Below are positions 16,414-63,884 of a stretch of DNA of 64,000 bases, in pieces. Below the pieces are notes generated by a model that had not been told where the DNA came from, ran no database searches, and saw only the letters and a list, made by a program, of their open reading frames with translations. A program made the translations under genes and the position numbers. Where the stretch lies: the sequence record NC_019399.1; one strand, given 5' to 3'. This DNA comes from Escherichia phage vB_EcoM_ACG-C40. Position 1 is the stretch's first letter, and each line of letters begins with the position of its first letter.

Positions 16414-17753
<1,340 letters not shown>

Positions 17754-17852: not shown

Positions 17853-18053
17853 ATGGCACAAAAATTAATGGCACTTGTTAATGCCATCAAAGGTAATAAA
17901 AAGCGTATAGCTTTTACTATTTCTGCTATGGTAGGAATTTTACTCTGGAACTTTATTTTATCACCAATTGCAATTGCGCATGGTGTTAATATTCCAGTAG
18001 TTACTCTTGATACATTCGTAGATCTAGCATTTGCTTTAGTTGGGTTAATTTAA
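17853..18053 (+). CDS. small two-helix membrane protein (66 aa), plus strand
   Basis: AAGGAGG 5 nt before ATG; two hydrophobic segments; stop overlaps primase stop in TTAA. Confidence 0.5.
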   Translation: MAQKLMALVNAIKGNKKRIAFTISAMVGILLWNFILSPIAIAHGVNIPVVTLDTFVDLAFALVGLI

Positions 18054-19078
18054 ATCTTGGCATATTTAGATAACCGCATTTTAGCCATTAACCCCTGGGC
18101 AATATTATTTTTCATATATTCCATAATTTGTTCAGGGGTTGCACCTTCCTTTCTAATCATATCATTAACATCTTTTGATTTCCAGGGAGATTTATCCCAA
18201 AACATAACCCTTTCTCCTGCATCAACTAATTTAGTCATTCGCTTGATAGTGTCAGGGTGACGAGGTTCATTATCTAAAACCCACACTCGTCTATCTTTAA
18301 ATGGAACAACTTCTAGGTCTAATTGACCACCCGTAATAGCTATACCATTTTCAATAAAAAGTGAATCTATAGGTCCTTCTAGAACATATACATCACCATC
18401 TTTAACTCGTTCGACTCCATATATTTTTGTTGCCTCAGGATAAGCTTTGATGGTGATATATTTTTGAGGAGCATCTTTCTTTAATGCACGTCCTTGAAAA
18501 GACTCAGCTTTTCCGTTAGCATTATAAATTGGAATAACAAGACGAGGCTCAGGTGTTTCCTTTTTATATGTTCCTGGAGCTATACTATTAACTAATTTAG
18601 GCCATTCGGTTGTAAACCAAAGATATTTCCATTTATCCTTTGGAATACAACGAGCTTTTACATATTTTATAATTGGATGGTCTTCCGCCAGTTTATCTAA
18701 TCTAACACATGACGGAAGAGATTTAATTATTTTCTTCTCAGGATGTTTAGGAAGTTCTTTAGGTTTTTCTACTGGACGACTTTTACCTTTTTCTTTTCTT
18801 ATTTCAAAGATATACTCACGATATAAATCAGGTTCAAACTCCTTTAAATATATTCCGATTGGTGCATGATAGTTACAGTTATAACAATGAATATTTCCTT
18901 CATTATTATCGCCATAATACCATCCACGGGCTTTATTTTGATCGGTTTTTGAATCTCCACAAACGGGACATCTAAACCGTAATTTAAAAGTTGAACTATT
19001 ATTTACTTGTGTGAATTTAGGTAAATGAGCTAATGCACGATATGCAAACTCATTATCAATCCAAGCTATTGATGACAT
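18050..19078 (-). CDS. 61: DNA primase gp61 (342 aa)
   Basis: Zinc ribbon CPVCGDS...CYNC and length match T4 gp61. Confidence 0.9.
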   Translation of the reverse strand: MSSIAWIDNEFAYRALAHLPKFTQVNNSSTFKLRFRCPVCGDSKTDQNKARGWYYGDNNEGNIHCYNCNYHAPIGIYLKEFEPDLYREYIFEIRKEKGKSRPVEKPKELPKHPEKKIIKSLPSCVRLDKLAEDHPIIKYVKARCIPKDKWKYLWFTTEWPKLVNSIAPGTYKKETPEPRLVIPIYNANGKAESFQGRALKKDAPQKYITIKAYPEATKIYGVERVKDGDVYVLEGPIDSLFIENGIAITGGQLDLEVVPFKDRRVWVLDNEPRHPDTIKRMTKLVDAGERVMFWDKSPWKSKDVNDMIRKEGATPEQIMEYMKNNIAQGLMAKMRLSKYAKI

Positions 19079-19081
19079 TCT

Positions 19082-19246
19082 TTACTCTTCTTTTTCTTTA
19101 GATTCCTCTTTTTTCTTTTTAGGAATCTGTTCAGGACCTTTATTTACTACAGCACCTGATGTTGTTCCAGTAGAGATATTTTCAGGATTACCACCTGAAT
19201 CTCCAGCAACCATATCTTCTTTAATAAATTCTTTATATGTTTTCAT
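19082..19246 (-). CDS. small protein (54 aa) with capsid-targeting-like N-terminus, not in the ORF track
   Basis: MKTYKEFIKED...; GAGGT 5 nt upstream; fills the gap between 61 and next gene. Confidence 0.5.
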   Translation of the reverse strand: MKTYKEFIKEDMVAGDSGGNPENISTGTTSGAVVNKGPEQIPKKKKEESKEKEE

Positions 19247-19247
19247 A

Positions 19248-19874
19248 TTAACCTCTATTCATAAAAGCATTAAAAATTTGGTCATCAATAGAAACATCTA
19301 CTTTAGACTGTTTTTCTGATGGTAATTCATATCCACATATTACAATTTTGTGATCAATATCAAAATACACAGAAGCAATATGATTAATGATGTTTTCAGT
19401 AAAGTCTAAATCAACATCAATATCTTTTTGACCAAAGCCCAAAGGATAAATAATGCGAGTAATTCGATTATCTTTAACAAAGATTCCACCGACATACTCT
19501 GTACTGCGTTTAAAGTCTACACGCCGACGAAATGAAAAATATTCAGGCTCTTTATGAGCTCGGCTCATAGGGCACAACGAATAACTAGAATAAGAGATGT
19601 CAAATCCTACGCCTTCAATATGAGCCAAAGTATCATGATTAAACCAATTATAATCGTACGCCAAATCCATTAGATTATAATATGTGAAAGGCACCGGATT
19701 AACATCATTGGTCACAAGCATATAATTAGCAACTGCTATAATTTCATTATTTTTAACGAATACAAACCGTGATTGATGCGAATGGCCTGGACCTGCGTTT
19801 TCACGATTAATGATATAACACTGGGCACCTTTATATTTGTACGTGTCTTTACACTTGTGCATTTGATAGAGCAT
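19248..19874 (-). CDS. hypothetical protein (61.2 position, 208 aa)
   Basis: ATG start. Confidence 0.5.
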   Translation of the reverse strand: MLYQMHKCKDTYKYKGAQCYIINRENAGPGHSHQSRFVFVKNNEIIAVANYMLVTNDVNPVPFTYYNLMDLAYDYNWFNHDTLAHIEGVGFDISYSSYSLCPMSRAHKEPEYFSFRRRVDFKRSTEYVGGIFVKDNRITRIIYPLGFGQKDIDVDLDFTENIINHIASVYFDIDHKIVICGYELPSEKQSKVDVSIDDQIFNAFMNRG

Positions 19875-20227: not shown

Positions 20228-20485
20228 TTATTTTAAAACTTCTGCATAATCACATGTTACAAACTGTTTCTCTAACTTGGCGATTTTACGAAAGTATCTT
20301 TTGCATTGACGAATCTGTCGCTTTGTAGGGCGCACAGCAAACTTAATAAATTCCACTCGACCAAATGGAGGGCTTTCTTCTGCCGGAATATCTAATACTA
20401 ATTCCCACGTATCTGCAATAAGTGCTTTGAATTGAGTATTTTTCCTGACATTATACGGAGTAGGTTTAAATAAAACGATATGCAT
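20228..20485 (-). CDS. hypothetical protein (61.4 position, 85 aa)
   Basis: Track start 20527 is TTG; ATG 20485 after GAGGA, 1 nt past dmd stop. Confidence 0.45.
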   Translation of the reverse strand: MHIVLFKPTPYNVRKNTQFKALIADTWELVLDIPAEESPPFGRVEFIKFAVRPTKRQIRQCKRYFRKIAKLEKQFVTCDYAEVLK

Positions 20486-20486
20486 A

Positions 20487-20669
20487 TTATCCTCGGCAAT
20501 CCACTTCACATACCTTCTTGTCATCAATGAAAGCTTTAACTAGTGCTTTATTAACTTCAGCATATTGAGTAGTAGCCCATTGAACGTCATCTTTCATCAT
20601 TGTGATCTCTTTAGTAAACATGCTTTCATTCTTAAACCACCCCATAAAAACTACCTTTACCAATTCCAT
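20487..20669 (-). CDS. dmd: Dmd-like antitoxin (60 aa)
   Basis: Size and position next to gene 41; sequence recalled as Dmd-like. Confidence 0.55.
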   Translation of the reverse strand: MELVKVVFMGWFKNESMFTKEITMMKDDVQWATTQYAEVNKALVKAFIDDKKVCEVDCRG

Positions 20670-62776: not shown

Positions 62777-63250
62777 TTATTTGAACGATTTAACGTACTG
62801 AATAGAACCTTTACTATTTACAAAGGCAATTTTACCATTTTTATTATACATGGTAGCAGTACGCTGATAGCCATAAGTTTGCTTACCAGATTGATAACCA
62901 ACTAATGCAAAATTATCTTCACCCATTTTATTCTGTTTAGCGCGAATGCGTTCATGACCATGTGCCATAAGAACCTTAGCATCACCAGTTACAATGGATC
63001 GACGAGTTTTTTCATCTTCAACTGTATTAACAAAGTCGTCAAATGAATCAAATTTAGCATGAGATTTATTATACAGTTTTCCATCTACTGCATAATTATA
63101 TCCCTGTACATCCATCTCAACTTCTGTACCATCATCCAATACAGCAGTAATTTTCTGTCCTTTTTTAAATTTCAAAAGATCAGTAAAAGATTCAGCAATA
63201 ATTTGAGAATTAATAGCTGCTTCAGTGATAAATTCTTGATATGTTTTCAT
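62777..63250 (-). CDS. internal protein family member with capsid-targeting sequence (157 aa)
   Basis: N-terminus MKTYQEFITEA matches the T4 internal-protein targeting sequence as recalled. Confidence 0.65.
   Translation of the reverse strand: MKTYQEFITEAAINSQIIAESFTDLLKFKKGQKITAVLDDGTEVEMDVQGYNYAVDGKLYNKSHAKFDSFDDFVNTVEDEKTRRSIVTGDAKVLMAHGHERIRAKQNKMGEDNFALVGYQSGKQTYGYQRTATMYNKNGKIAFVNSKGSIQYVKSFK

Positions 63251-63338: not shown

Positions 63339-63884
<546 letters not shown>

Follow-up and report, generated by a model that had tools for sequence, protein, structure and literature searches.

Gene 61.1 of T4-like phages may encode a prohead-targeted peptide that resembles the N-terminal arm of the major capsid protein

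The head assembly pathway of bacteriophage T4 is among the best studied, and the inventory of its prohead components has for many years been regarded as complete. For IPIII, one of the internal proteins (IPs) that bear a capsid targeting sequence (CTS), the N-terminal ten residues are enough to direct encapsidation. Positions 4 and 7 of the CTS are important for targeting, whereas processing depends on positions 8 and 10, and the protease gp21 cleaves behind the Glu of an L/I-x-E motif (PMC9026906). In the T4 record (NC_000866), we confirmed that IPII and IPIII both start MKTYQEFIAE|A, and that IPI starts MKTFKEFTST and runs on to ITE|A, its full leader being MKTFKEFTSTTTPVSTITE|A. The major capsid protein gp23 is itself matured at LTE65|A66. 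Residues 66-105 of gp23 are disordered inside the unexpanded head, where they probably touch the core, and later make the N-arm/N-fist and part of the Soc site; the head-length mutations A66D, A94V, and G97S map to the same segment (PMC9546572).

Here we compare gene 61.1 with these systems. The DNA that we analysed, referred to below as the window, is a stretch of 64,000 nucleotides from Escherichia phage vB_EcoM_ACG-C40 (NC_019399.1), a Tequatrovirus and close relative of T4. Gene 61.1 is already annotated as a gene, in T4 under the name 'gp61.1 hypothetical protein', and it is the function of this gene that is at stake. To our knowledge, gp61.1 is not among the classical T4 head components, and in the literature that we searched we found no link of 61.1 to either the CTS or gp23. 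Our analysis suggests a new combination, in which a leader of the CTS/gp21 type is joined to a conserved copy of the capsid arm.

Position and identity of gene 61.1

The initial annotation described a 54-aa ORF at 19082-19246, beside the primase gene, without giving its strand. We find this ORF, the ortholog of gene 61.1, on the minus strand (19082..19246), where it comprises an ATG start, 54 codons, and a TAA stop (19082..19084), and the translation that we read from the sequence is identical to the one quoted there. The ribosome-binding site that had been proposed, GAGGT, is likewise present (19251..19255, minus strand), 4 nt before the ATG and within the last codons of 61.2, whose stop lies 1 nt before the same ATG. 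Gene 61, encoding the DNA primase (18050..19078, minus strand), starts at 19078, 3 nt past the 61.1 stop, and the purine-rich DNA of the 61.1 tail codons doubles as the gene 61 translation start region. The ORF therefore lies between 61.2 and gene 61 on the same strand, within the minus-strand gene order 41, dmd, 61.4, sp, 61.2, 61.1 ORF, 61. This is the order found in T4, and the ORF does occupy the position of T4 gene 61.1, as had been suggested; its product is identical to T4 gp61.1 (NP_049649) at 52 of 54 residues.

The 600 bases around the ORF are 98.5-98.7% identical to many T4-type phages. The ORF matched the phrog_1823 profile along its whole length (E 7e-34, spanning 1-54/54); phrog_1823 and phrog_2086, both of unknown function, were its only PHROG matches, and neither the ORF nor the locus gave a match in Pfam, NCBIfam, or Rfam. 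A scan of the operon for sigma-70-type promoters and terminators found it no richer in these than shuffled sequence.

Other features were observed in the neighbourhood of the operon. A 66-aa hydrophobic ORF (phrog_2024; 17853..18053, plus strand) is located between a 186-aa ORF and primase gene 61, and a terminator-like hairpin on the minus strand (17890..17865) directly follows gene 61. The 186-aa ORF (17193..17753, minus strand) belongs to phrog_8706 (unknown function) and occurs in 179 records of T4-type phages. It adjoins the gene for the Dam (GATC) methylase (16414..17193) at the start of that gene, base 17193 being common to both ranges; at this site T4 has only a 309-bp gap. The product of the 186-aa ORF matched the DpnII (GATC) family of restriction endonucleases weakly and below threshold (PF04556, E 0.0045), and may act as a nuclease together with the phage Dam. 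The ORF of 61.4/tifA (DUF7279; 20228..20527, minus strand) encodes 99 aa when read from a TTG start and overlaps the end of dmd. T4 annotates 85 aa, and the true start is probably an internal codon.

Leader, cleavage junction and gp23-like core

The leader of the window gp61.1, MKTYKEFIKE (codons 1-10; 19217..19246, minus strand), is CTS-like and ends in a gp21-type I-K-E. The initial annotation had likened it to MKTYQEFIAE, and the comparison is well founded: the two share 8 of 10 residues and 26 of 30 nucleotides with IPII and IPIII as the reference, and all four critical CTS positions are kept (Tyr4, Phe7, Ile8, and Glu10). In T4 itself, the gp61.1 leader MKTFKEFIKE is identical to ipI over its first 7 residues and first 22 nt. 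We scored the N-termini of 966 ATG-initiated ORFs of at least 25 aa in the window, and only two exceeded 4/10, namely 61.1 (8/10) and the internal-protein homolog (phrog_3155 'internal virion protein' / DUF7412; 62777..63250, minus strand), which, as had been noted previously, opens with the same motif (MKTYQEFITE, 9/10). Because these are the only two such ORFs, and because their first ten codons have 27 of 30 nt in common, the leader resemblance is far beyond chance.

The stretch of gp23 that aligns with the leader, AQAFGSFLTE, is only ~3/10 like it. The pN/pS of the leader is 0.35. In the AlphaFold (AF2) prediction, the leader forms a short helix and the remainder of the protein has no fold (pTM 0.18). 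Among 36 distinct short leaders from very divergent phages, 26 are CTS-like in having an aromatic residue followed by hydrophobics at +3/+4. In the whole RB49-type genome of Escherichia phage kaaroe, no other ORF fits a generic CTS pattern, and no internal-protein gene bearing the local 61.1 leader was found. The best match there to the kaaroe 61.1 leader, MIGFKQFVEE, is a UvsW.1-like 78-aa ORF (L028:2605-2841, minus strand) that starts MISFKRFLVE|AA (6/10), and the resemblance of this ORF to the CTS and to the 61.1 leader is probably a coincidence.

The leader ends at the junction I8-K9-E10|D11, which fits the gp21 motif L/I-x-E. The predicted gp21 cut falls between codon 10 (19217..19219) and codon 11 (19214..19216) on the minus strand, and the predicted mature part of 61.1 has no further [LI]xE. 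A Glu located 1-2 residues before the MVAGD core is found in 173 of 174 distinct family members, and 157 of those 173 (91%) have a hydrophobic residue (L, I, F, M, or V) at P3 of this junction.

Members of the family have one of two architectures. Short forms are 50-70 aa in length with a leader of 4-18 residues, and in long forms, of ~155 aa (phrog_2086), the leader is replaced by a helical N-domain of ~105 residues for which we detected no relatives of known function. Homologs that lack MKTY..E have either this ~105-aa N-domain or leaders such as MTLLEKYKQSLSE or MKSFMEVSGRKKGKIDE. The initial annotation had named homologs lacking MKTY..E as a ground for refutation, and many homologs do lack it. 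Even in those where other parts of the leader are replaced, the Glu junction with its hydrophobic P3 is kept. The conserved features are the cleavage motif and the gp23-like core rather than the T4 CTS. In the long forms, another site is conserved ~14 residues upstream of the junction ([I/L]-[T/N/S]-E95|S/A, 35/37), and their [LI]xE motifs cluster in those 20 pre-junction residues and are rare elsewhere. This double site resembles the multiple-site propeptides of processed head proteins (PMC5694885). As the second site lies outside the gp23-like segment, gp23 mimicry alone does not explain it.

Downstream of the junction are the conserved core, DMVAGDSGGNPENISTGTTSGAVVNKGPEQIP (codons 11-42; 19121..19216, minus strand), and a Lys/Glu-rich tail of variable sequence, KKKKEESKEKEE (codons 43-54; 19085..19120, minus strand). 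From Asp11 on, the residues read DMVAGDSGGNPENIS[T/I]GTTSGAVVNK. The product had been described as low-complexity, a description that we do not uphold: residues 11-42 form its best conserved part (pN/pS 0.26), with homology to the ~28 residues at the start of mature gp23*, that is, to the N-terminal arm/N-fist segment (gp23 66-93). Using BLASTP, residues 2-38 of 61.1 aligned with residues 57-93 of T4 gp23 (37 residues, 43% identity, E 1e-8) in a register that places Glu10|Asp11 of 61.1 exactly on the gp23 maturation cut, Glu65|Ala66. The two proteins have in common the pattern G-D-x-G-x-N-x-x-N-I-x-x-G-x-T-S-G-A-V-x-x-x-G-P.

Profile comparisons gave the same relationship. A family profile built from 153 non-redundant cores was searched against six-frame ORFs of at least 40 aa from a complete RB49-type genome, two T4 loci, and the window, and its sole non-61.1 matches were to gp23 (E 1.2e-14 and 2.3e-14), with the next match at E 0.5. 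In a PDB-wide search of 177,635 distinct sequences, T4 gp23 chains were the only matches (E 1.2e-5), and hhalign against a mixed gp23 alignment returned a probability of 86%. An intermediate sequence, P0130 (LGE|AEVAGDSGYNAQNIASGLTSGAVTNKGP), bridges the 61.1 core and gp23. A profile search of 1.84 billion proteins recovered family members only and no gp23-length protein, because the match is short. When 61.1 was compared by eye with the cognate gp23 arm in the few genome-matched pairs (T4, kaaroe, L013/L036, and EcS1), no consistent pattern of co-variation or gene conversion was seen.

Several database records name 61.1 homologs 'major capsid (domain-containing) protein'. We considered and rejected gp61.1 as a capsid protein, as only 37 residues align, there is no Pfam match, and AF2 gives no fold; these names are over-annotations.

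The 61.1 core was identified by tblastn in 1492 phage records, from phages of Escherichia, Klebsiella, Shigella, Aeromonas, Acinetobacter, Enterobacter, Vibrio, and other hosts, and clustering of the family at 50% identity gives 50 groups. Records in which the gp23 arm shares at least 60% identity with that of T4 number ~1496, and the counts per host genus closely match those of 61.1. A Kyanoviridae (cyanophage-type) relative whose gp23 arm differs has an N-domain homolog and no 61.1 peptide. Codon analysis gave a pN/pS of 0.35 overall, 0.26 for the core, and 0.55 for the tail at near-saturated synonymous divergence; gene 61.1 is under purifying selection, with the core (11-42) best conserved. 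A Lys-rich run follows GPE in the members examined. The linkage of 61.1 to gene 61 is retained in Krischvirus (RB49-type), Aeromonas, Acinetobacter, and Vibrio phages. At the loci of T4, Acinetobacter, and Vibrio phages, 61.1 immediately precedes 61, and at those of RB49-type and Aeromonas phages a single ORF stands between the two.

The N-domain is far more widespread than the gp23-like peptide and is found alone in HTVC008M and phiN3. In Sinorhizobium phage phiN3, the N-domain homolog (L033:2995-3420) lies two genes ahead of the primase gene, and its C-terminal end is a degenerate peptide with a Lys-rich tail; the homolog in Pelagibacter phage HTVC008M (L032:2992-3597) has a different C-terminal part. 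In some metagenomic relatives (P0040, P0054, and P0058), the 61.1 core and Lys tail continue, within one protein, into a second CTS-like stretch (MNEVSNFKQFVEGLE...) and a domain of ~100 residues, as though 61.1 had been joined to a CTS-bearing gene that lay downstream of it.

Possible functions of gp61.1

We put at roughly an even chance the reading that gp61.1 is targeted to the prohead and cleaved by gp21, and that the resulting peptide is a mimic of the gp23* N-terminal arm. From the leader, the junction, and the core we infer how targeting and cleavage might proceed, and what the fate and role of the product might be. The 10-residue leader would act as a T4 CTS and bring gp61.1 to the scaffolding core during prohead assembly; the N-domain may take over this task in other genera, and the gp23-like segment may help. 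As the prohead matures, gp21 would cut at I8-K9-E10|D11 to give a product of 44 residues (4.6 kDa, pI ~5), in which the first ~28-30 residues would copy the mature gp23* N-terminus and be followed by the Lys/Glu tail. The peptide would bind the partners of the gp23 arm, which are the core as long as it is uncleaved and, once it has been cut, the gp23/gp24 lattice or DNA.

If this is true, a fourth gene with an internal-protein leader would extend the prohead list, and gene 61.1 would gain a testable function. The gp23 segment that 61.1 copies is that of the head-length mutations and the Soc-binding N-fist. It would also follow that the CTS is exchangeable for another N-terminal module in evolution, which is relevant to T4-based protein-delivery engineering.

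The initial annotation had interpreted gp61.1 as a peptide packaged in the capsid and injected with the DNA. The CTS-like leader and the fit of I-K-E10 to the gp21 motif survive from that interpretation; the low complexity does not. We think that a role in assembly or maturation is likelier than that of an injected, host-directed effector, because 61.1 is near-universal and is found together with the T4-type gp23 arm, whereas the injected internal proteins are hypervariable.

The data on expression and virion content bear on the same question. Using the exact 8-mer TATAAATA, a search that would miss variants, we found no late promoter on the minus strand over the ~42 kb from 15045 to 57397. 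The same promoter is present at 63860..63867 (minus strand), upstream of gene e, and the internal-protein homolog lies downstream of it. With 5 matches in the window, TATAAATA is rarer than in shuffled sequence (mean 11). The T4 IP RNAs are also classed as 'early' (PMC9697503), like the 61.1 RNA, and a head role is therefore compatible with the early transcription of 61.1. Among the entries listed in a T4 infected-cell time-course proteome, which include Dmd (60 aa), 61.4, Sp, and 61.2, gp61.1 (P39228) does not appear, although the N-terminus of a gp21-cut gp61.1 would be semi-tryptic. No chain in the PDB entries searched, including the T4 head entries that match as gp23, has the gp61.1 sequence, and the supplement of a T4 head mass-spectrometry study lists coverage for IPII, IPIII, and Alt only (PMC5694885). 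We take the lack of a late promoter, the absence from the proteome entries, and the lack of a PDB chain as mild counter-indications to packaging and injection. Small cleavage products mostly exit the prohead through pores (PMC9546572, PMC9026906), which makes retention of the 61.1 product doubtful. Further observations count against the prohead model: the linkage to the primase gene, which a head role does not explain; the P1' residue, which is Asp in T-even 61.1 and Ala or Ser at the known T4 sites examined; and the knock-down of 61.1 in T4, which carries no fitness cost in the laboratory.

A bolder version, which we regard as tentative and rather unlikely, is that gp61.1 would be a protease-freed, trans-acting copy of the capsid arm that enters the prohead by means of a borrowed leader or, in other genera, of the ~105-residue domain, and that rivals or replaces the gp23 arm on the core and the expanding lattice. 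Such a peptide would tune head-size determination, the timing of cleavage or expansion, or vertex stability. If true, it would be a capsid-arm accessory without a described counterpart in any tailed phage, near-universal in Straboviridae and overlooked in T4.

The resemblance to gp23 could instead serve in the cytoplasm, where gp61.1 would be an early decoy or anti-defence peptide that mimics the gp23 N-terminus together with its cleavage junction and occupies a binder of nascent gp23, such as a defence sensor, chaperone, or protease. A 61.1 RNA of the early class, a late promoter that was not found, and the disorder of gp61.1 (AF2 pTM 0.18), as expected of a linear-motif mimic, are all consistent with this proposal. 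The Gol segment of gp23 (~93-122), which triggers Lit, begins where the 61.1 homology ends, and we count this in favour of a decoy. In addition, gp23 triggers CmdTAC via a SecB-like chaperone (PMC11618068), the early dmd-61.4-sp-61.2-61.1-61 operon has been termed an 'anti-TA island' (bioRxiv 10.1101/2022.04.14.488369), and 61.1 is dispensable in the laboratory host, its knock-down in T4 having no fitness effect (score -0.84, 'Not Fit'; PMC11879866 supplement). The anti-toxin proteins Dmd, TifA (61.4), and AdfA (61.2) are, like gp61.1, small, early, laboratory-dispensable products of the same transcription unit. However, they have no sequence similarity to gp61.1, and the link between them is one of operon co-location only. 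Known anti-defence genes, these three included, are patchy and host-specific in distribution, whereas nearly all phages of this type have 61.1, whether their host is Escherichia, Klebsiella, Acinetobacter, Aeromonas, or Vibrio. A decoy also leaves unexplained why the leader keeps CTS determinants that are absent from gp23 (AQAFGSFLTE, ~3/10) and why the second L/I-x-E of the long forms lies outside the gp23-like part, and gp61.1 has no similarity to any known anti-defence protein. We consider a decoy function a real rival, though rather unlikely on this evidence; if it proved true, a capsid mimic directed against capsid-sensing immunity would also be new.

The position of 61.1 next to gene 61 invites a further explanation, which we find quite doubtful. 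Gene 61.1 might be a coupling ORF that delivers ribosomes to a weak gene 61 start, or might encode a replication-linked protein, such as a primase/helicase accessory with a DNA-binding Lys tail, and the gp23 and CTS resemblances would then be relics of gene assembly. This accords with the 3-nt gap from stop to start, with the overlap of the purine-rich tail codons and the gene 61 initiation region, and with the Lys-rich tail of the members examined. It also accords with the gene arrangement, as 61.1 adjoins 61 (T4, Acinetobacter, and Vibrio) or is one ORF off (RB49-type and Aeromonas), and the phiN3 N-domain homolog is two genes upstream. Yet RB49-type and Aeromonas phages retain the peptide despite the intervening ORF, purifying selection acts on the amino acids and is strongest in the gp23-like core rather than at the 3' end, and this explanation does not say why the Glu should be invariant and its P3 hydrophobic.

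Lastly, that the gene is a chance product or relic, a non-functional recombinant of an internal-protein leader and a gene 23 fragment, might be suggested by its very short length, its lack of a Pfam or NCBIfam match, its disorder, and the absence of a knock-down phenotype, but this reading is effectively refuted by conservation, given 1492 phage records and 50 clusters at 50% identity, a pN/pS of 0.26-0.35 at saturating synonymous divergence, and gene order and motifs that are conserved across genera. Taken together, the prohead, decoy, replication-linked, and relic readings account for most of our confidence, and the remainder is left for explanations outside them.

Comparison with known systems

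An analogy to the prohead-peptide model is offered by the pre-Mu/pX core peptides of adenovirus, which are co-assembled and then trimmed in the capsid by the viral protease, leaving a short, charged product that stays with the genome. The virus, protease, and sequence are unrelated to those considered here, and the predicted 61.1 product is net acidic (pI ~5) rather than a basic, DNA-condensing peptide.

In comparison with gp23, the HK97-fold body, with its A and P domains, is absent from 61.1. The 61.1 leader is of the internal-protein type and not a gp23 propeptide, and 61.1 has a Lys/Glu tail where gp23 has ...MGMVRRAIPNL. The long forms (phrog_2086), found in CC31, KP15/KP27, Acj61, and KVP40-type Vibrio phages, have the core, the Lys-rich tail, the Glu junction, and the site upstream of the primase as in 61.1.

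The CTS-bearing T4 IPs have nearly the same leader as 61.1 (8/10), the same L/I-x-E end, the same codons, and the same minus-strand orientation. Unlike the IPs, 61.1 is found in the early primase operon, without a late promoter and outside the IP locus, its P1' residue is Asp and not Ala, and its presence in the head is a prediction. The cargo also sets the two apart: that of the IPs is hypervariable, whereas that of 61.1 would be a disordered peptide of 44 residues, homologous to gp23 and conserved across Straboviridae.
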